Notes under the pieces: generated by a model | Database searches by the model: none | Told to the model about the DNA's origin: nothing | What the model saw: the letters and a program-made list of their open reading frames with translations, nothing else | Virus genome (UHGV): UHGV-0265340 | DNA length: 13,709 nt | From: a virus | Reading direction: 5' to 3' (one strand) | Program-made: the position numbers and the translations under genes | Shown: in pieces, positions 621 through 10,687 of the stretch | How positions within the stretch are numbered: the stretch's first letter is position 1 | Layout of the letters: each line of letters starts with the position of its first letter

Positions 621-1313
621 TCAGAATTCAAATTGTCTTGCCCGCAGGCTTTTCAGCATTGGCGTGGCCCGCTGGATAACGGAACTTGACATGTCGAGAC
701 GTGTTACCTCCCTTAGTAGCGCGTCTCTGTTCTTCGTCACCATGTAGATAGTCTCAAACGCAATGTCATACAGCTTGTTCGTGTATGAGGAGTTCAGCTC
801 TTTCATTATGGGGTACAGCTGCTTGCTAAGGTCCTGGGCTTTTTCCATCCAGAGTTGCATGTAACAAAGGAGGATGATTTCCTCGGCTGTGAATTGTGGC
901 TGAATCTGCGGCTGCTGTTCGGTTGGTGCTGTTTTTCCCTGGCTGAAATAGCAGTCTTCCAGTTTTTCGAACACTTCCCACGCCTGATCGGTTTCTAGCA
1001 TTTTGGCGTGACGGGCTGCGCCTCGTTCTGTCCAGAGGATGAGGGAGCGGGCTTTCGGGGAAATTTGTAACCCTCTTAAAGATGGTTGCAAATTTTGTGA
1101 GTAGTTTAAAGCTACCCGCAAATTTTTCAGGGCATCGCCAGCCACTTTGAAAAAATGCTTTCCTTCAATAAAGCGCTCAGCATTTCTGGCGTAGTTATTT
1201 TGAATGTTCTTAACTTCAGCACCGTACAACTGCGCCAAAAGTTCGGTGGTAATAACAGGAATCTGGTTATGGGTGATCGGGGAGAGAGTTTCAACAGAGA
1301 TTTGAGTTGTCAT
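621..1313 (-). CDS. Roi/antirepressor-like phage DNA-binding protein (Bro-N/ORF6N-type N-terminus)
   Basis: 230-aa ORF with ATG at 1313 and SD-like GAGGG upstream; N-terminal segment (NYARNAERFIEGKHFFKV) resembles ORF6N/antirepressor N-domains; sits just upstream of ninB where lambdoid phages carry roi/ant-like genes. Family call is from recollection only. Confidence 0.7.
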   Translation of the reverse strand: MTTQISVETLSPITHNQIPVITTELLAQLYGAEVKNIQNNYARNAERFIEGKHFFKVAGDALKNLRVALNYSQNLQPSLRGLQISPKARSLILWTERGAARHAKMLETDQAWEVFEKLEDCYFSQGKTAPTEQQPQIQPQFTAEEIILLCYMQLWMEKAQDLSKQLYPIMKELNSSYTNKLYDIAFETIYMVTKNRDALLREVTRLDMSSSVIQRATPMLKSLRARQFEF

Positions 1314-1473
1314 AATGACGCCCTCGAGTGGTTTCTTAATAACTCACCACCGACGACGCCAATCGTCTGGTGGTGAACTGTGCAGGGTTGGCGTAACCGG
1401 GAAACCGACCGGCGCGGATCTCTCCGCCCCCACACAGCCCACCATAATTCAGATGTGCGCGTGCATACGACAA

Positions 1474-1496
1474 TAAAAAACACGCTCGCGGCGTGT
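1474..1496 (-). terminator. Intrinsic terminator on minus strand (tR2-like position)
   Basis: Minus strand reads ACACGC-CGCGA-GCGTGT followed by TTTTTT (plus-strand A-run 1475-1480, stem 1480-1485 / 1491-1496); lies between the cargo island and the antirepressor/ninB genes. Confidence 0.5.
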
Positions 1497-1594
1497 ATCT
1501 GTCGCGGTCTCTATCCAGGACGCCAATCCCGACGCCAGATTTTGCTGGCGTGCGGTGAATATAATCCCGGATACCTATTTTTGTCAAACAACCG

Positions 1595-1622
1595 TTGCGC
1601 ATTACACAACAGTCGCTATAAT
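1595..1622 (+). promoter_or_regulatory. Putative sigma70 promoter of higBA
   Basis: -35 TTGCGC (1595-1600), 16-bp spacer, perfect -10 TATAAT (1617-1622), about 28 bp upstream of the higB ATG. Confidence 0.4.
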
Positions 1623-1650
1623 GATTCGCGTAACGCAACAGGAAACAAGC

Positions 1651-1929
1651 ATGATAAAAAGCTGGAAACACAAAGGACTTCAACGTTTCTTTGAAACAGG
1701 AAATGCATCAGGCATAAATCCCAATCACGTTAAACGCCTGAGAACGCGCCTTCAGGTAATAGATCAAGCTGAAATCATTGATGATATTAACCTTGCCGGG
1801 TACAGGCTGCACCAGTTGCAGGGGGACAGATCCGATACATGGTCTGTCACCGTCTCCGGTAACTGGAGAATCACATTCGAGTTTCGGAACGGCGATGCTT
1901 ATATTCTTAACTACGAGGATTACCACTAA
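1651..1929 (+). CDS. higB: HigB toxin (RelE/ParE-fold mRNA interferase, plasmid-killer family)
   Basis: 92-aa ORF from ATG 1651 with SD AGGAAACA (1640-1647); near-colinear with Rts1/Proteus HigB as recalled (MIKSxKHKGL ... GNWRITFxFxNGDAYILNYEDYH); stop TAA overlaps the next ATG (TAATG 1927-1931); toxin-first order typical of higBA. Confidence 0.9.
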   Translation: MIKSWKHKGLQRFFETGNASGINPNHVKRLRTRLQVIDQAEIIDDINLAGYRLHQLQGDRSDTWSVTVSGNWRITFEFRNGDAYILNYEDYH

Positions 1930-2234
1930 TGGCGATGTTTAACCCCCCTCATCCCGGAGAAATTATTGCTGATATTCTGGAAGATCAGAATATTGGAATC
2001 AGGGAACTGGCAAGAGCGCTTGATGTCGCGCCTTCCACTGTTCAGCGACTGGTTTCAGGTAATGCGACAATATCTCCTGAAATGGCTGTTCGTCTCGCTG
2101 CTGTCCTGGGTGGAACTCCGTCTTCATGGATTCGTCTCCAGACGGCATGGAGCCTCGAAAAAGCGGAAAGAGAAGTTGACGTATCTCATCTCTCAACAAA
2201 ATACCGCCCGGCAGAAATTTCGCCTCATGCTTAA
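1929..2234 (+). CDS. higA: HigA antitoxin (XRE-family HTH)
   Basis: 101-aa ORF translationally coupled to higB; HTH segment IRELARALDVAPSTVQRLVSG; overall similarity to HigA antidote proteins (PHPGEII...LED motif at the N-terminus). Confidence 0.9.
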   Translation: MAMFNPPHPGEIIADILEDQNIGIRELARALDVAPSTVQRLVSGNATISPEMAVRLAAVLGGTPSSWIRLQTAWSLEKAEREVDVSHLSTKYRPAEISPHA

Positions 2235-2281
2235 CCACCGCGCCGTCATTCTGGCGGCGCTTTACCCCAGAGAAATATCAA

Positions 2282-2527
2282 TCACCGGATTACCACATCC
2301 CACTCCGGCTCCTGCCATCTCAAATCCGGTGAATCATTTCTCTCAGGAATAACCATTACGTCCTTTTCCCTTCGCTCCCTTTCTATCGCCATCACAGCCA
2401 ATGCTGTAACCATGATGTATTTTTGTTCGTCGGTTCCTGTTTCATAACGACGCATGAGGGTAAACTCGGGGCGATCAGTAACCTCAATGATTTCGTTAAT
2501 TTCTTTAATTTCGCGAGGAATATCCAT
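2282..2527 (-). CDS. Hypothetical small charged protein (81 aa), divergent from the DUF4145-like gene
   Basis: ATG at 2527 preceded on the minus strand by a strong SD (AAGGAGA, 8-nt spacing); translation is E/R-rich and protein-like; no recognisable family. Its start overlaps the plus-strand start at the CCATGG palindrome (2524-2529), so it may be spurious. Confidence 0.3.
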   Translation of the reverse strand: MDIPREIKEINEIIEVTDRPEFTLMRRYETGTDEQKYIMVTALAVMAIERERREKDVMVIPERNDSPDLRWQEPEWDVVIR

Positions 2528-3200
2528 GGGTTTAGTCTCCTTTGATATCACATGCCCGCACTGTTTAAAAGAGCGAGCTGTTATTGAGGCATTTGCCGAA
2601 AAACAAATTGAAAAAACACCTTTTTTTAACGTCGCTTTTGTATGCAGAAGTTGTCATCGAGGAGGTGTTGCTATTGTTGAAATCCCATCAGACCACTATC
2701 ACGGTCCCATGGCGGAAAGCCAGAAAAAAGACCTCGATATTCTGATTTCAGGAAATAGCCAGTACCGTTTCCGCAAGATCTATCCTGTGGTCAAAAAAAT
2801 TACCGCACCAGAATATACACCCCCGGTTGCAGACCGTACTTTTGTTGAGGCAAAAGAGGATTTACAGAGGAGGCGGTACGACACAGTGGTTATTCTTTGT
2901 CGCAGAGTCCTCGATATCTCCACGAAAAAACTGCTCGGCGATGAAGCAGGAAAAGAATCGCTGTCGCAACGTATTCAGATGATTTACAAAAAAGGCCTGA
3001 TCACTGAACAGATGAAGGAATGGGCTCATATTGTACGAATTGATGCCAATAAAGCAGTTCATACAGATGAAGTTTTCACACCAATTGAGGCAAGCCAGAT
3101 CCTGAGTTTTACCGAAATGTTTTTAGTCTACGCCTTCACTCTGCCTGCAATGGTGGAAGCCAGACGTGAACAAAAAAGATCAGATTCAGCCTCTATATGA
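2526..3200 (+). CDS. Zn-ribbon + DUF4145-like (putative HEPN-type) protein, candidate defence effector
   Basis: 224-aa ORF from ATG 2526 with SD GAGGAA (2515-2520); N-terminal CPHC (C10,C13) ... CRSC (C40,C43) zinc ribbon; C-terminal helical region with R171-x7-H179 (RIDANKAVH) matching the DUF4145 signature as I recall it. Confidence 0.85.
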   Translation: MGLVSFDITCPHCLKERAVIEAFAEKQIEKTPFFNVAFVCRSCHRGGVAIVEIPSDHYHGPMAESQKKDLDILISGNSQYRFRKIYPVVKKITAPEYTPPVADRTFVEAKEDLQRRRYDTVVILCRRVLDISTKKLLGDEAGKESLSQRIQMIYKKGLITEQMKEWAHIVRIDANKAVHTDEVFTPIEASQILSFTEMFLVYAFTLPAMVEARREQKRSDSASI

Positions 3201-3222
3201 ATCACTTTTCTGAACACGTAAG

Positions 3223-3244
3223 CCCCCGTCATTCACGACGGGGA
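3223..3244. other. Perfect 8-bp stem hairpin between convergent genes
   Basis: CCCCCGTC (3223-3230), loop ATTCAC, GACGGGGG (3237-3244); no U-tract on either strand, so at most a weak bidirectional terminator or RNA-stability element; overlaps the stop of the 3233-3664 gene. Confidence 0.4.
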
Positions 3245-3664
3245 GAACATCAATCCCTCTGCACTCCCTCGCCAGAATGCCAGCACACGCTGCATCGTTT
3301 CGCTGTTACGGCACTCGCGACAAATTGTGTTGTAGCGTCTGTCGTAGCGCCGTATTTCCCCATCTGGTAATGCCCGGATAAGGTCTGGATCAACGACAAC
3401 CGGTTTCTTCGACTTTGCCCTTGAGAGTTTTTTGCGGGCATTTTGCCAGTCCTTACGAGCCTGTTCAGACGGGAATACTCCGTAACCGGAATTGTAAACA
3501 TCACCACTGGCGGCCAGCTCCATGCATAAACGACCGACAGACGCATGACTGACACCAATTTCATCCGATAACTGCCGAATCGTGCCTCGTCCGTTAAGGC
3601 GTACGAATTCCACGATCAGCCCCTTAATTTTTTCCCGCTCTTCTGGTGTAAATGCTCTTGTCAT
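3233..3664 (-). CDS. Hypothetical prophage protein with winged-helix-like N-terminus
   Basis: 143-aa ORF from ATG 3664 (GGAG SD region 3675-3678; alternative GTG at 3670); HTH-like TIRQLSDEIGVSHASVGRLCMELAASGDV; part of the minus-strand early operon downstream of the replication genes. Confidence 0.7.
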   Translation of the reverse strand: MTRAFTPEEREKIKGLIVEFVRLNGRGTIRQLSDEIGVSHASVGRLCMELAASGDVYNSGYGVFPSEQARKDWQNARKKLSRAKSKKPVVVDPDLIRALPDGEIRRYDRRYNTICRECRNSETMQRVLAFWRGSAEGLMFSPS

Positions 3665-3679
3665 AAGCACCTCCGGAGA

Positions 3680-4429
3680 TCACTTTGTTGTCGGTGAATG
3701 AACCGGAATATCAGCAATCGAACTGAAAATATCCCGGTGTTTATTCAGCTCCCGCAGCGCGGCGCAGACTCGCTCCCACTTCTGAACATCACTTTTCGCC
3801 CTGCGCAGGGACGGAAAAATCAGCTCATCTGCTTGCGTTTCGGTAAACGATGGCAACGACTGCACAATGTCCGCCACAGTTTCTGTTTTAATTTCTTCCT
3901 GTGTTGCGGCTTCCCGGACTGGTAACGCAGCACCTGCTGGCTGAGGAAAGGCCTTACCATCATTTTCCGTTACCGGCGCGGTTTTCGGATCTGCTGGTAA
4001 ATTACCCCCCGGCATGCAGTAACGAAATTTACCGTTCTGATTAACGCGTGCCAGCCGCCCCGTTGCGGTTACCACCGCCAGCGTGGAAGCAACCTTGCGA
4101 GTGGTAACTCCGAACTTACCCGCTATTTCTTCACAGGTTTTAGCCCCCTCCTGAGAGATAAACTCAATCATCATGTCAGCGCTAACTTTTGGAGCGACCT
4201 CTTCGGTCAGCATATCCTGTGTTTCAGATTTTACTGGCCGCTCTTCGGTTACCCGGGATTCACCTTCGACAGCCAGAAACCAGGTGTGACCCGTTTTATC
4301 AACAACGCCATTTTTTTTGAGTTCCCACAGTTCGTTGAGAACTTCTTCACGGCTGATATCAAGCCGCGCCGCCAGTTCAACAGAATTGGCTTTTCCCATC
4401 GCTTTCAGTGCATGCAATACGGTTTCCAT
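3680..4429 (-). CDS. Hypothetical prophage DNA-binding protein (winged-helix N-terminus, acidic C-terminus)
   Basis: 249-aa ORF; ATG at 4429; follows the dnaC-like gene with a 25-bp gap; N-terminal wHTH-like segment SVELAARLDISREEVLNELWELKKNGVV; internal second HTH-like segment. Confidence 0.75.
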   Translation of the reverse strand: METVLHALKAMGKANSVELAARLDISREEVLNELWELKKNGVVDKTGHTWFLAVEGESRVTEERPVKSETQDMLTEEVAPKVSADMMIEFISQEGAKTCEEIAGKFGVTTRKVASTLAVVTATGRLARVNQNGKFRYCMPGGNLPADPKTAPVTENDGKAFPQPAGAALPVREAATQEEIKTETVADIVQSLPSFTETQADELIFPSLRRAKSDVQKWERVCAALRELNKHRDIFSSIADIPVHSPTTK

Positions 4430-4454
4430 CGAAAATTTACCTCGTCAAAAATTC

Positions 4455-5195
4455 TCACATACCCTGACGTCCAACGTTTGACCGCCAGCTCTCCCAGTTA
4501 AAATTCACCCAACGACCACCGTTCATGGTCATCCGGTCCATAATCCTCTCACCAAGAAGCGTGCTCATTGCGGCATGATTCAGGTTTGTCAGCATCCCGA
4601 CACTGCGCAGTGATGCCGTCCGGCGGTCAACAATCTGGTGCAGTACCACCTGCTCGTTTTTCGTCTCACGCTGGATGCCAATTTCGTCAAGAACCAGGAG
4701 GTCCACTTCGCACAGTTCACGCAAAAATTTTTCCCCTGACAGTCCGTCGTCATAGCTGGCATGTAACGCGCTCATCACATCCGCCACGGTGACCACTATC
4801 ACGGATTTACCGGCCTTCAGCAGACGATTACCCACAGCCGCCGCCAGATGATTTTTTCCGGTTCCCGGATTCCCGCTGAACACGAAGTTTGTACACCCGG
4901 TCATCAATTCATCGGCAATGGATTTCGCCTGGCTCAGAGCATGGCGCTGACCGTCGTTCTGCACCCGGTAGTTCCCGAATGAGCACTTCCTGTGAAGCGG
5001 CTGGATGCCCGCACGGTTCAGGATTTTTTCAACCCGCGCCTGATGATTCAGGCGGTTAATTTCCTCGCTGCGCTTACGGCCCTCAGCCAGTTGCCATTCC
5101 CGCCATTCGTCGGTCGTCCGGAACGGTGCTGCCACGTGCGGTGGTGCCAGACGGCGCACCCGTTCAAGAATCCCTCCTGTCGAAATGTTTTTCAT
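4455..5195 (-). CDS. DnaC-like replicative helicase loader (AAA+)
   Basis: 246-aa ORF colinear with E. coli DnaC as recalled: MKN... start, Walker A GNPGTGKNHLAAA, Walker B DLLVLDEIG, MLTNLN motif, C-terminal ...WVNFNWESWRS; SD AGGGGG upstream. Confidence 0.92.
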   Translation of the reverse strand: MKNISTGGILERVRRLAPPHVAAPFRTTDEWREWQLAEGRKRSEEINRLNHQARVEKILNRAGIQPLHRKCSFGNYRVQNDGQRHALSQAKSIADELMTGCTNFVFSGNPGTGKNHLAAAVGNRLLKAGKSVIVVTVADVMSALHASYDDGLSGEKFLRELCEVDLLVLDEIGIQRETKNEQVVLHQIVDRRTASLRSVGMLTNLNHAAMSTLLGERIMDRMTMNGGRWVNFNWESWRSNVGRQGM

Positions 5196-5201
5196 GGCTG
5201 A

Positions 5202-6278
5202 TTACCCCCTGAAACCCGGCGGAATTTCGGTGTCCGGTTCAGAAATGTGATTCACGCAACGCAGGCTGACTGCGCCAGCCTTCGGCAGCGACCACGGATT
5301 TTCGAAATTCCTGTTCGGGCCAAAAAACGTCGATGCCTGCTGAACAAATTCAGTTCCCGCTTTCCCGGTAGCCTCCAGGTATCTTGCGTAACGCCTCACG
5401 CCATCCAGCACGACATCCGGTGACACCCCTTCGCGTAATCTGGCCCTCCAGGCATTGAACGCGGATTTCTTCGGGTTTGACCCTGCCCGATGCGGATATT
5501 CACGCCAGACCCGTTCGAACACGTCAGGATAATCAACTCGTCCCGCAGACGGTCCCGGCATCGCCCGGGTTAACCCAATCGGCTTCCCGCTCATCGCGGA
5601 ATCGGCTTCAGGCTGCTGCGGTTGGCGTTGTTGCTCCGGTTCGACGATCAGCACCTGCTGCACACAACGCCCGGAATCTGCTTCCGGTGTCGTGCCAGCT
5701 GGTCCTGGACGTTCAGTCAGAACAGGACAAAAATCCCCCTGCGGGTCCGTGGCGATTTTTTCGCCATGGACCAGAAGGGTTTTATCCCTTTCCTGTTCTT
5801 GTTCCTGTTCTTGGCTTGAAAGGGGCTCTGAAGGGGCTTCAATTTTCCGACATGATTCACGTCTGACATCCAGGTGGAAATCATCCTTATATCTATCATA
5901 AAAGGATGATAAAAAAGGATTTTCCAGCAACACGGAATATTCATTTCTTACCCCAGCACAACGGTTATCGCCAGGTTTCAGCGATTCACCAACCTGCCAT
6001 GCTGCCATTTCATGCACCCATACAACCTCAGAATCATGGTCATAGCTGCAAAAACCAGCCTCGCAAGCCATTTGAAGCCCCTTAGAAGCCCCTTCAGGAT
6101 CAAGTCCGGTTTCGTGAGCAATGTACAAAACAGGCAGGTAATAAAGGCCCAGCATATTGGAATGAGGCGAGGTCATCATATACAACGCCACTACCATACA
6201 TTCCGGACCAGACTTCCTTAGTTTTCTCCCTGTTTCGCCTAACCAGAACTGAGGTGAAATTGTTGCGTAATTACGCAT
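5202..6278 (-). CDS. Phage replication protein with DnaT-like C-terminal domain
   Basis: 358-aa ORF with SD GAGGGG; C-terminus ends ...SEPDTEIPPGFRG, paralleling the C-terminus of primosomal protein DnaT as recalled; stop lies 7 bp before the dnaC-like start; contains low-complexity EQEQEQ and one copy of the upstream ~60-bp repeat. Confidence 0.85.
   Translation of the reverse strand: MRNYATISPQFWLGETGRKLRKSGPECMVVALYMMTSPHSNMLGLYYLPVLYIAHETGLDPEGASKGLQMACEAGFCSYDHDSEVVWVHEMAAWQVGESLKPGDNRCAGVRNEYSVLLENPFLSSFYDRYKDDFHLDVRRESCRKIEAPSEPLSSQEQEQEQERDKTLLVHGEKIATDPQGDFCPVLTERPGPAGTTPEADSGRCVQQVLIVEPEQQRQPQQPEADSAMSGKPIGLTRAMPGPSAGRVDYPDVFERVWREYPHRAGSNPKKSAFNAWRARLREGVSPDVVLDGVRRYARYLEATGKAGTEFVQQASTFFGPNRNFENPWSLPKAGAVSLRCVNHISEPDTEIPPGFRG
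5546..5640. repeat. Diverged third copy of the ~60-bp repeat, inside the replication gene
   Basis: CAGACGGTCCCGGCATCGCCCGGGTTAACCCAATCGGCTTC...AGGCTGCTGCGGTTGGCGTTGTTGCTCCGG matches the two copies at 6312-6472 apart from an internal 23-bp insertion. Confidence 0.8.
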
Positions 6279-6311
6279 AGTCCCCTCGCATACAAGATTT
6301 ACTCCATACCG

Positions 6312-6472
6312 CAGACGGTCCCGGTATCTCCCGGGTTAACCCAATCGGCTTCAGGCTGCTGCGGTTGGTGTGACTGCACATTGGTGTGACTGCACATCTT
6401 CACAGACGGTCCCGGTATCTCCGGGTTAACCCAATCGGCTTCAGGCTGCTGCGGTTGGTGTTGTTGCTGGCG
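6312..6472. repeat. Two direct copies of a ~59-bp repeat (91-bp period) plus an embedded 16-bp tandem duplication
   Basis: Copies at 6312-6370 and 6403-6460 (CAGACGGTCCCGGTATCTC(C)CGGGTTAACCCAATCGGCTTCAGGCTGCTGCGGTTGGTG); TTGGTGTGACTGCACA duplicated in tandem at 6365-6396; located between the cII-like gene and the replication gene. Confidence 0.85.
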
Positions 6473-6531
6473 AAATTCTTCCAGATGTGGCAGAATTATT
6501 CCCGTGTATTGCTCCATGCCCTGCCTGAATA

Positions 6532-7283: not shown

Positions 7284-8054
7284 ATGGTTAAAAAAGATGA
7301 ACTAAAAGAAGCGTTCTCAAAGAGACTACTACAGGCATTATTAGATGCAGGTGTGGGCGGACGCGGTCAGGCTAAGCGGATTCAGAATGCAATGAAACTG
7401 CGAGGCATTGATATCTCTGAACCGGGGATCTGGAAATGGCTTAATTCTGCATCAATTCCAGAAAAAACAAGTATTTTGGCACTTAGTGACTGGCTTTCCG
7501 TGAAGCCGGAGTGGTTGGAGTATGGCAGTAACGAGCCATCCGTAAAACAGCGACCTTCTATTCCAAACGAATCAGAATGGGGTTCCCTTGAAACTTGGGA
7601 CAGAAATACACAACTACGAGATGATGAAGTTGAGGTGCCATATCTGAAAGACATTGAGTTTGCATGCGGTGACGGAAGAGTTCATTGCGAAGATCATAAT
7701 GGTTTTAAATTACGCTTCTCAAAAGCAACCCTGCGCCGTGTCGGAGCTAACAGTGATGGTTCTGGTGTGCTTTGTTTTCCGGCTACTGGTGATAGCATGG
7801 AACCCGTGATACCAGATGGAACAACAATCGCAGTAGACACAAACAACAAACGTATTGTTGACGGCAAACTCTACGCCATCGCACAGCCTGGTGTCGGTGA
7901 TGAAAAACTGAAGCGTATAAAGCTATTGTACAGACGCCCCGGTGGAAAACTAATCATACGCAGTTATAACAGTGAAGAGTACCCTGACGAAGAAGCAGAT
8001 ACTCAAAGCGTGGAGATTATCGGAAAAGTTTTCTGGTATTCAGTTCTGCTTTAG
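7284..8054 (+). CDS. cI: CI-type prophage repressor (HTH + LexA-like S24 autopeptidase domain)
   Basis: 256-aa ORF; C-terminal S24 motifs (GDSMEP, downstream catalytic Lys region KLKRIK); N-terminal DNA-binding region; no SD, start directly downstream of the -10 (leaderless). Confidence 0.92.
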   Translation: MVKKDELKEAFSKRLLQALLDAGVGGRGQAKRIQNAMKLRGIDISEPGIWKWLNSASIPEKTSILALSDWLSVKPEWLEYGSNEPSVKQRPSIPNESEWGSLETWDRNTQLRDDEVEVPYLKDIEFACGDGRVHCEDHNGFKLRFSKATLRRVGANSDGSGVLCFPATGDSMEPVIPDGTTIAVDTNNKRIVDGKLYAIAQPGVGDEKLKRIKLLYRRPGGKLIIRSYNSEEYPDEEADTQSVEIIGKVFWYSVLL

Positions 8055-8304: not shown

Positions 8305-8350
8305 GCTCTTTAAACAACGTCGAACACTCGACTACGTGGCTGAAAAGCCA
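8305..8350 (+). promoter_or_regulatory. nutL-like site (boxA, small hairpin, boxB)
   Basis: boxA-like GCTCTTTAAACAA (8305-8317); hairpin GTCGA-ACAC-TCGAC (8319-8332); boxB-like TGGC-TGAAAA-GCCA (8337-8350); about 100 nt upstream of the N-like ATG. Confidence 0.55.
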
Positions 8351-8450: not shown

Positions 8451-8723
8451 ATGTCCAGAAAGACAGAATTTAAAGGAACCGCAACTTCCCGCCGCAGAGC
8501 ACACCGGGCTGAGCTTCAGAGTCTGGAGGCATCAAGCGCTGATAAACTGCACCGCCCCACGCCTTCACGGGTGTACTTACAGTGCAAGCGCAAAGCCGCA
8601 ATGCGAGCTGAAGTAGTCACGATAACGACATTAACCAGAAAATATGAAGGCTCCACTTGTCTTCCAAACACTGCACTTTACGCAGCTGGCTATCGCAAAT
8701 CCGGAACAATAACAGCGAGGTGA
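8451..8723 (+). CDS. N: N-like transcription antiterminator (P22 gp24 / lambda N family)
   Basis: 90-aa ORF from ATG 8451 (SD GGAGAGA 8439-8445); arginine-rich motif TSRRRAHRAELQ resembling the lambda N ARM (QTRRRERRAEKQ); C-terminus LPNTALYAAGYRKSGTITAR parallels P22 gp24 as recalled; matching nut sites on both operons. Confidence 0.8.
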   Translation: MSRKTEFKGTATSRRRAHRAELQSLEASSADKLHRPTPSRVYLQCKRKAAMRAEVVTITTLTRKYEGSTCLPNTALYAAGYRKSGTITAR

Positions 8724-10009: not shown

Positions 10010-10248
10010 AAATTCACTCTCCTTACGGGGTTTGTAGTTGAGGAGTTCTCCACGGGTGAGGTGGAGATCGTGCGCCGGACACGGGTAAGTTCCGGCACTC
10101 TCAGTTTACTGAACAGACATTACCCTGAAAGCCAGGGTACAACACGAAAGTGCACGGCGAAGACTCTTTCCCATTGAAGGCTTGTCGTTAGATTTCTTCG
10201 ACCGTGCGCTTCCGGTTGTGAATAACAACATTGCTGTGTGTAGCCCTT

Positions 10249-10290
10249 GGCGGACATCGGTTTGCCGATTGCTGATGTCCGCCCTTTTTA
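10249..10290 (+). terminator. Strong intrinsic terminator with no adjacent upstream CDS
   Basis: Stem GGCGGACATC (10249-10258) / GATGTCCGCC (10274-10283) with an inner ATCGG/CCGAT pairing, followed by CTTTTT (10284-10289); nearest upstream plus-strand CDS ends at 9831. Confidence 0.6.
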
Positions 10291-10465
10291 AAGTGAATTT
10301 TGTGATGCGGTGAATGCGGCTATGCGCACGCGGAACAGTTAAACCGACAGGATGTCACGGAAAGTCATCGTCCCCTGACCCGGCGTTAGTTGTTAACTGG
10401 TTAACGTCACCTGGAGGCACCAGGCACCGCATCAACAAAGTTCATTTGTGAAAATGGAGATAATT

Positions 10466-10687
10466 ATGATTGCTCATCACTTCGGAACTGATGAAATACC
10501 ACGTCAGTGCGTGACGCCTGGCGATTATGTTCTTCATGAAGGTCGGACATATATCGCTTCAGCAAACAATATTGAAAAGAGAAAACTCTATATTCGTAAC
10601 TTCACAACAAAAACATGCATTACCGACTGCATGATTAAAGTTTTCATCGGGCGCGATGGCTTACCCGTAAAAGCAGCGTCGTTGTGA
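10466..10687 (+). CDS. Hypothetical small protein (73 aa)
   Basis: ATG 10466 with SD GGAGA (10456-10460, 5-nt spacing); in-frame alternative ATG 10454 and GTG 10448; Cys-containing, AT-rich; no family recognised. Confidence 0.5.

Follow-up and report, generated by a model that had tools for sequence, protein, structure and literature searches.

The window analysed here, a 13,709-nucleotide stretch of viral DNA (UHGV virus genome UHGV-0265340), is the early region of a lambdoid Escherichia coli prophage that resembles the Shiga toxin (Stx) phages and carries an N gene, nutL and nutR. At positions 1651 to 2234 it contains a toxin-antitoxin (TA) pair, higB and higA, oriented against transcription from the early promoter pR. 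Our results make it probable that this pair is a self-contained HigBA moron of the Rts1 type, and that its orientation derives from linkage to the neighbouring antirepressor gene (ant) and from the insulation of a moron, rather than from a dedicated regulatory switch.

The assignment of the two genes to HigB and HigA, already made in a first-pass annotation of the same DNA, is borne out by matches to Pfam, TIGR02607 and PDB entries and by the retention of catalytic residues.

1651-1929, plus strand: higB, 92 amino acids, predicted ribosome-dependent mRNA endonuclease toxin with a RelE fold
1929-2234, plus strand: higA, 101 amino acids, predicted helix-turn-helix (HTH) XRE antitoxin and autorepressor

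HigB matches the Pfam model HigB-like_toxin (PF05015) from end to end (E=4.2e-22) and the solved Rts1 toxin (PDB 4MCT) with E=4.6e-32. Aligned with Rts1 HigB, it shows 60% identity across all 92 residues and needs no gap. His54, Arg73, Asp90, Tyr91 and His92 are all retained in this alignment; His54, Asp90, Tyr91 and His92 are critical to mRNA cleavage by Rts1 HigB (PMC5027501). HigB also belongs to PHROG 3066 ('toxin of TA system'), while a search of NCBIfam returned no match for it. HigA matches Pfam HTH_3 and scores 88.4 bits against TIGR02607 (antidote_HigA; cut-off 47.7); its nearest solved structure is HigA of E. coli CFT073 (PDB 2ICP, E=8e-28), followed by Rts1 HigA (E=1e-19, 42% identity). 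As in Rts1, the toxin gene comes first, and its TAA stop codon overlaps the higA ATG by one base. PHROGs places both proteins in the category 'moron, auxiliary metabolic gene and host takeover'. On every sequence criterion tested, the pair belongs to the HigBA family, Rts1 type, with a resemblance far beyond chance. The 2 kb from 1300 to 3300 match the chromosome of E. coli JNEC-KY204 at 100% identity, and there the PGAP labels are 'type II toxin-antitoxin system RelE/ParE family toxin' and 'HigA family addiction module antitoxin'.

The pair appears to bring its own control region and, possibly, its own terminator.

1594-1640, plus strand: higBA control region, read from the sequence and by alignment to the Rts1 promoter Phig
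2240-2260, plus strand: GC-rich hairpin with a 9-bp stem, followed by UUUACCCC; fold of -17.1 kcal/mol, z=-2.1, with a short, weak U tract

The predicted higBA promoter has TTGCGC (1595-1600) as its -35 element and, after a spacer of 16 nt, a perfect -10 element TATAAT (1617-1622); the promoter scan missed it because the -35 element matches the consensus at only three of six positions. Two imperfect, operator-like palindromes with the outer half-sites GTTGCG/CGCAAC accompany it, O1 (1594-1610) overlapping the -35 element and O2 (1622-1640) lying just before a ribosome-binding site, GGA, at 1641-1643. When the region is aligned with Rts1 and with chromosomal copies from Yersinia, Mixta and Pantoea, the TTGC of the -35 element, the -10 element and both palindromes line up with their counterparts in Rts1 Phig, which HigA represses through operators O1 and O2 (PMC12266136). 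The separate promoter that the first-pass annotation had ascribed to higBA can thus be predicted in register with a characterised one. The O1 pattern was found nowhere else in the window, the surroundings of pR, pL and the antirepressor core promoter included. At the other end lies the hairpin, which the terminator scan did not flag; it may act as a weak terminator and mark the right-hand limit of the cassette. Similarity to other phages is lost near 1591 on the left side and near 2237-2259 on the right. In base composition the cassette does not stand out from the DNA around it. Promoter, operators, toxin, antitoxin and hairpin would together make up a unit of about 670 bp (approximately 1591-2260) in the textbook configuration of a moron.

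To the left of this unit, facing away from it, is a second cassette with a promoter of its own, the arrangement of which bears directly on the orientation of higBA.

1587-1558, minus strand: PisrK-like divergent promoter (TTGACA, 18 nt, TATATT; 11 of 12 consensus matches)
1475-1564, minus strand: isrK / c4-a1b1 leader RNA (Rfam), with an intrinsic terminator at its end (stem 1496-1480 and a run of T)
1449-1366, minus strand: C4-type antisense RNA of the P1/P7 immI type (Rfam RF01695; 66.7 bits, gathering threshold 45, E=2e-11)
1313-621, minus strand: antirepressor (ant), Pfam ORF6N and P22_AR_C; PHROG 377, E=5e-85
616-597, minus strand: strong terminator 3' of ant, from the terminator scan

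Judged by these sequence matches, the 340 bp between higB and ant hold a control cassette of the P1 immI / Gifsy-1 isrK-orf45-anrP design. The c4-a1b1 model of Rfam matches 1564-1512 with 47.1 bits (gathering threshold 46.7), and the isrK model matches 1551-1475 with 74.7 bits (gathering threshold 50), beginning 7 nt past the -10 element. The -35 element of the antirepressor promoter (1587-1582) is only 6 nt from O1, and this promoter and that of higBA stand back to back. In Gifsy-1, the isrK promoter transcribes the antirepressor gene anrP by partial read-through of the IsrK terminator (PMC4825925). With a near-consensus isrK-type promoter of its own and this precedent, the antirepressor of the window could be reached without pR, which would be needed for the ninB-Q segment only.

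The neighbour therefore shares with P1/P7 immI (c4-icd-ant) and with Gifsy-1 the promoter, the a1b1/IsrK leader with its terminator, the C4 RNA and the antirepressor, and differs from them in having no clear ATG-started equivalent of orf45 or icd. The sole frame whose stop codon overlaps the start of ant (ATGA, as in Gifsy-1 orf45/anrP) occupies 1310-1483 on the minus strand and lacks an ATG start; an ATG-started open reading frame (ORF) of 33 amino acids lies at 1445-1344 on the same strand, inside the C4 element. The annotation of the RefSeq record omits the IsrK/C4 control cassette (1366-1587, minus strand).

Comparison across phages shows the linkage of the two cassettes to be stable. At all seven loci with a HigB at least 93% identical to that of the window (a RefSeq prophage, phage GER2 and five IMG/VR contigs), the higBA cassette adjoins isrK-C4-ant and diverges from it, and it does so despite Ant identities of 48-100% and differing positions in the nin region. 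The spacing between O1 and the antirepressor -35 element is 6-7 nt in all close cassette copies, and intact cassettes keep 93-100% protein identity across different phage backgrounds. On this account, higBA would be antisense to pR because it stands back to back with the IsrK/C4 antirepressor promoter, which itself points in the same direction as pR.

The same juxtaposition also suggests another reading, in which the back-to-back region is a control node common to both cassettes. On this reading HigA or HigBA, when bound at O1 (about -43 to -59 from the isrK start), would modulate the antirepressor promoter, and TA status (through antitoxin proteolysis under stress, for example) would be relayed to Ant and to induction. 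The 6 nt between O1 and the -35 element, the maintenance of this juxtaposition in all close copies and the fact that phage PhiR5_2 has another type of HigBA there, also divergent, speak for such a node. We nevertheless rate it as quite unlikely, since no HigA operator-like site occurs within the antirepressor core promoter or elsewhere in the window, since a single insertion spread by recombination in the conserved isrK flank also explains the juxtaposition, and since most isrK cassettes have no TA neighbour. From IMG/VR, 120 isrK-motif loci were retrieved and about 100 were usable; a co-directional Q-like gene lies upstream of the cassette in most of these, in place of the divergent TA pair seen here, and only some 15 of the roughly 100 have any divergent gene. 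The divergent ORFs examined among them are not TA genes, and a general linkage of TA genes to isrK/C4 antirepressor cassettes was accordingly rejected. An extended form of the idea treats the 100 bp from higB to isrK as the node, with O1 occupancy tuning IsrK, C4 and Ant and with pR read-through stripping off HigA, so that TA status, Ant and induction would be coupled; this, too, we hold to be a long shot.

The position itself is a variable site between the replication genes and the nin genes. Phage 75/02 Stx carries in the same slot a different RelE/ParE toxin with a regulator, and PhiR5_2 another type of HigB/HigA pair, likewise divergent. In the Stx2a phages of PA2 type (O157 type), the slot contains genes for a ParD antitoxin and a small lipoprotein, a complete higA and, of higB, just the final ~25 bp. 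In phage PA2 itself, this antitoxin-only form occupies 4283-5314 of the locus. An earlier publication comments on orphan ParD and HigA genes in phages of enterohaemorrhagic E. coli (EHEC) (PMC12502783). The slot beside the antirepressor cassette is thus a hot spot at which TA cassettes are gained, swapped and decayed to orphan antitoxins. Three different TA cassettes occur in it, all oriented against pR. The intact form of the present cassette was found in 22 of 5426 complete E. coli genomes, in none of them on a plasmid, and in one of 50,697 phage records; a decayed form, with higA but without the toxin, is commoner, with 46 further genomes and 45 phage records.

In order to weigh what transcription from pR would mean for the cassette, the early right unit has to be considered as a whole. 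Transcription from pR runs along the minus strand.

8451-8723, plus strand: N-like antiterminator gene (PHROG 271, E=9.7e-21; PGAP 'transcriptional antitermination N peptide')
8305-8350, plus strand: nutL-like site, read from the sequence, with boxA GCTCTTTAA at 8305-8313 and boxB TGGCTGAAAAGCCA at 8337-8350
7284-8054, plus strand: cI
7211-6972, minus strand: cro
6958-6914, minus strand: nutR-like site, read from the sequence, with boxA TGCTCTTTT at 6958-6950 and a boxB hairpin TCGCTGAAAAGCGA at 6927-6914
6828-6532, minus strand: cII-like gene
6278-5202, minus strand: O-like replication gene
5195-4455, minus strand: DnaC/IstB-like gene
4429-3680, minus strand: DUF1627 gene
3670-3233, minus strand: DUF977 gene
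2526-3200, plus strand: DUF4145 gene (Pfam PF13643, E=3.9e-9; PHROG 1305), the second antisense gene of the island
2527-2282, minus strand: ORF of 81 amino acids, a PGAP coding sequence in the identical RefSeq region (PHROG 8371, E=1.4e-55, function unknown)
566-156, minus strand: ninB

The flanks of higBA are thus mostly on the minus strand, with cro and the cII-like, O-like, DnaC-like, DUF1627 and DUF977 genes upstream and ant and ninB downstream. Within the island, the DUF4145 gene and higBA lie on the plus strand, and the 81-amino-acid ORF is the only gene in the sense of pR. The nutR-like and nutL-like sites share the same pair of boxA and boxB motifs and are sited past the pR-like and the pL-like promoter, respectively. 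Past ninB, the identical RefSeq prophage continues on the same strand with ninE, rusA, ninH and a Q-like antiterminator gene (PHROG 753, E=3e-68). From this gene order, ninB and the Q-like gene lie beyond the island for a polymerase that starts at pR, and pR transcription must cross it. Two intrinsic minus-strand terminators stand on the path from pR to Q (1496-1480 and 616-597), and antitermination is therefore plausibly required; a further hairpin lies at the 3' end of the DUF977 gene (3224-3243). The first-pass annotation was correct in placing higBA antisense inside an N-type early right unit, as the N gene, nutR, nutL and the gene strands indicate. It had also held that pR must cross the island in order to reach the antirepressor and ninB, which is upheld for ninB, and by extension for Q, but not for the antirepressor, since this gene has its own promoter and its own IsrK/C4 cassette.

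A working model can be built on these features. The cassette would comprise an autoregulated sigma-70 promoter, two putative HigA operators, toxin-first genes overlapping by one base and a trailing hairpin. In a lysogen, if the Rts1 system is a guide, the cassette's own promoter would be active at a low level under repression by HigA, and HigB, a ribosome-dependent mRNase, would be kept inactive in complex with HigA; the likely benefit is addiction to, or stabilisation of, the prophage region, or defence by abortive infection. Upon induction, following the lambda paradigm, N-modified polymerase would pass the hairpin at 3224-3243, run antisense through the DUF4145 gene and higBA and read through both terminators (1496-1480 and 616-597) on its way to ninB-Q. 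Such head-on traffic, coming from a strong promoter and meeting a weak, repressed one, probably lowers higBA transcription, whether by collision, promoter occlusion or double-stranded RNA. The lowered transcription would be a by-product, and its consequence might be either a silent system or a liberated toxin. In the classical model of type II TA systems, the labile antitoxin runs down once transcription stops, and the toxin may then be freed. The direction of any effect of pR on HigB could therefore go either way.

The first-pass annotation had taken the same geometry for a built-in switch between prophage-state defence and lytic growth. Formulated as an evolved antisense switch of the 'noncontiguous operon' type, the proposal is that higBA is on in the lysogen, for defence or stability, and that N-antiterminated pR transcription silences it during lytic growth, through colliding polymerases or antisense RNA, so avoiding self-harm. 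The geometry is right for this, with pR crossing the island towards ninB-Q; the three different TA cassettes of the slot all point against pR; and an experimental precedent exists for a prophage defence gene, namely Tha/Ith in phage 80alpha (PMC11087260). The comparative data do not back it. Among 41 viral contigs with an Rts1-type HigBA, the module runs the same way as its neighbours in 22, is antisense to them in 14 and gives a mixed picture in five, as far as crude ORF-based gene calls can tell, and in one group of phage contigs cro, the replication genes and higBA through to the terminase are all on one strand. In the lineage of the window, linkage to the divergently transcribed ant cassette accounts for the orientation, and antisense placement is generic for morons, being described as characteristic of their loci (PMC7067206). 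Furthermore, shut-off of a type II system classically depletes the labile antitoxin and does not turn the toxin off, PADLOC gives no support to HigBA as a defence system, and the toxin-lost form predominates. Taken together, these arguments leave an evolved switch unlikely, though it deserves to be kept in mind.

The reading that we prefer, a self-contained moron oriented by its linkage to ant, has to be set against several observations that weigh against it. The rarity of the intact cassette and the greater frequency of the toxin-lost form argue against strong selection for the toxin. The PADLOC search gave no match for HigB, so that a defence role is unsupported. The presumed activity derives wholly from Rts1 proteins of 42-60% identity. 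Finally, the terminator past higA is a weak one that the scan did not pick up, and plus-strand transcripts may consequently reach the DUF4145 gene. The literature search yielded only the remarks on orphan HigA and ParD in EHEC phages, and no transcript or functional report for the cassette was found in it.

Some of these observations would also suit a non-functional or decaying passenger, with a toxin that is inactive or unexpressed and with no role for phage or host. The cassette is rare, higB is frequently lost while higA is retained, and the orphan ParD and HigA genes of EHEC phages (PMC12502783) fit the same picture. Both reading frames, all four critical catalytic residues, the promoter and the operator-like sites are nevertheless intact in the window, and the proteins of the intact copies show 93-100% identity in differing phage backgrounds, which renders a mere passenger very improbable.

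With regard to origin, the first-pass annotation had read the similarity to Rts1 as a sign of plasmid-to-phage transfer. A search of 72,556 plasmids found its best HigB homologue in Pantoea, at 68.5% identity (Rts1 HigB itself stands at 59.8-60%), and no near-identical DNA, only short pieces of 67-74% identity. Closer relatives of HigB are chromosomal, with 78% identity in Yersinia and 71-74% in Mixta and Pantoea. A recent transfer from plasmid to phage was rejected, nothing on plasmids exceeding 68.5% protein identity; as far as these sequences indicate, the resemblance to Rts1 reflects family membership, with no traceable plasmid-to-phage transfer.

Among known systems, the nearest is HigBA of plasmid Rts1 from Proteus vulgaris (PDB 4MCT/4MCX), which likewise has the toxin first, a one-base overlap, a 92-residue HigB and a two-operator promoter in register. 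The copy in the window is prophage-borne and chromosomal whereas that of Rts1 is plasmid-borne, and its operator half-sites read GTTGCG/CGCAAC in place of ATTACA/TGTAAT. The closest solved antitoxin, HigA of E. coli CFT073 (PDB 2ICP/2ICT; E=8e-28 over residues 1-89), is a chromosomal copy from another strain. The cassette resembles phage morons, such as STMMW_20121 of ST64B, in having a predicted promoter of its own, in being present or absent among related phages and in lying antisense to lytic genes; it departs from the typical moron in its weak, uncertain terminator. A type II TA system embedded in lambdoid prophage regulation has a parallel in paaR2-paaA2-parE2 of the cryptic prophage CP-933P, a proposed stabiliser of its region (PMC8630535). 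That system lies in the immunity region under analogues of CI, Cro and CII, whereas higBA lies past the replication genes and appears to be self-regulating.

In the Tha/Ith 'noncontiguous operon' of the Staphylococcus aureus phage 80alpha, an accessory gene and a phage operon are likewise transcribed in opposition, and mutual interference couples expression of the prophage defence gene to lysogeny or lysis (PMC11087260). There, the defence gene is part of the cI operon, and the product of the antisense gene is an inhibitor protein; in the window, a TA pair with its own antidote is opposed by the early operon of pR.

Nothing in the window lies outside known kinds, RefSeq and the GenBank phage records already carry names for both genes, and the idea of a switch is not new in principle. 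As it stands, the finding carries little weight, concerning an annotated member of a well-studied TA family in a standard moron configuration. If it were true that the antisense geometry gates HigB on induction, the 'noncontiguous operon' principle would extend from staphylococcal phages to lambdoid and Stx-type phages, and the case would show how toxin-carrying prophages escape self-intoxication or turn it to use. Of greater practical use is the corrected map, in which the antirepressor is placed under IsrK/C4 RNA control with its own promoter, beside a TA hot spot.

Several minor observations concern the remainder of the window. Beyond the 2-kb core, the window differs from the JNEC-KY204 prophage in gene lengths, its DUF1627 gene being 21 bp and its O-like gene 6 bp shorter; the prophage of the window is therefore a close relative of that of JNEC-KY204, but distinct from it. 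The 81-amino-acid ORF (minus strand) and the DUF4145 gene (plus strand) start head to head with a 2-bp overlap (CATG, 2525-2528), and the promoter of each must therefore lie inside the other gene; the promoter scan found none for either. The two genes co-occur as a pair in several phages. The DUF4145 protein has a CxxC...CxxC motif at its N-terminus and a weak match to the PADLOC system PD-T7-4 (E=0.002). A repeat of 60-90 bp is present in three copies that are 87-100% identical (5543-5628, 6309-6371 and 6403-6461), one within the O-like gene and two in a small upstream ORF (6299-6517) that encodes a repeated QPQQPEAD peptide; these repeats may be iterons or otherwise related to the origin. 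In the pL operon, at 10235-10480 on the plus strand, adjacent Rfam matches to DicF (29.5 bits, gathering threshold 48) and STnc100 (31 bits, gathering threshold 47), both below threshold, may represent diverged prophage small RNAs.

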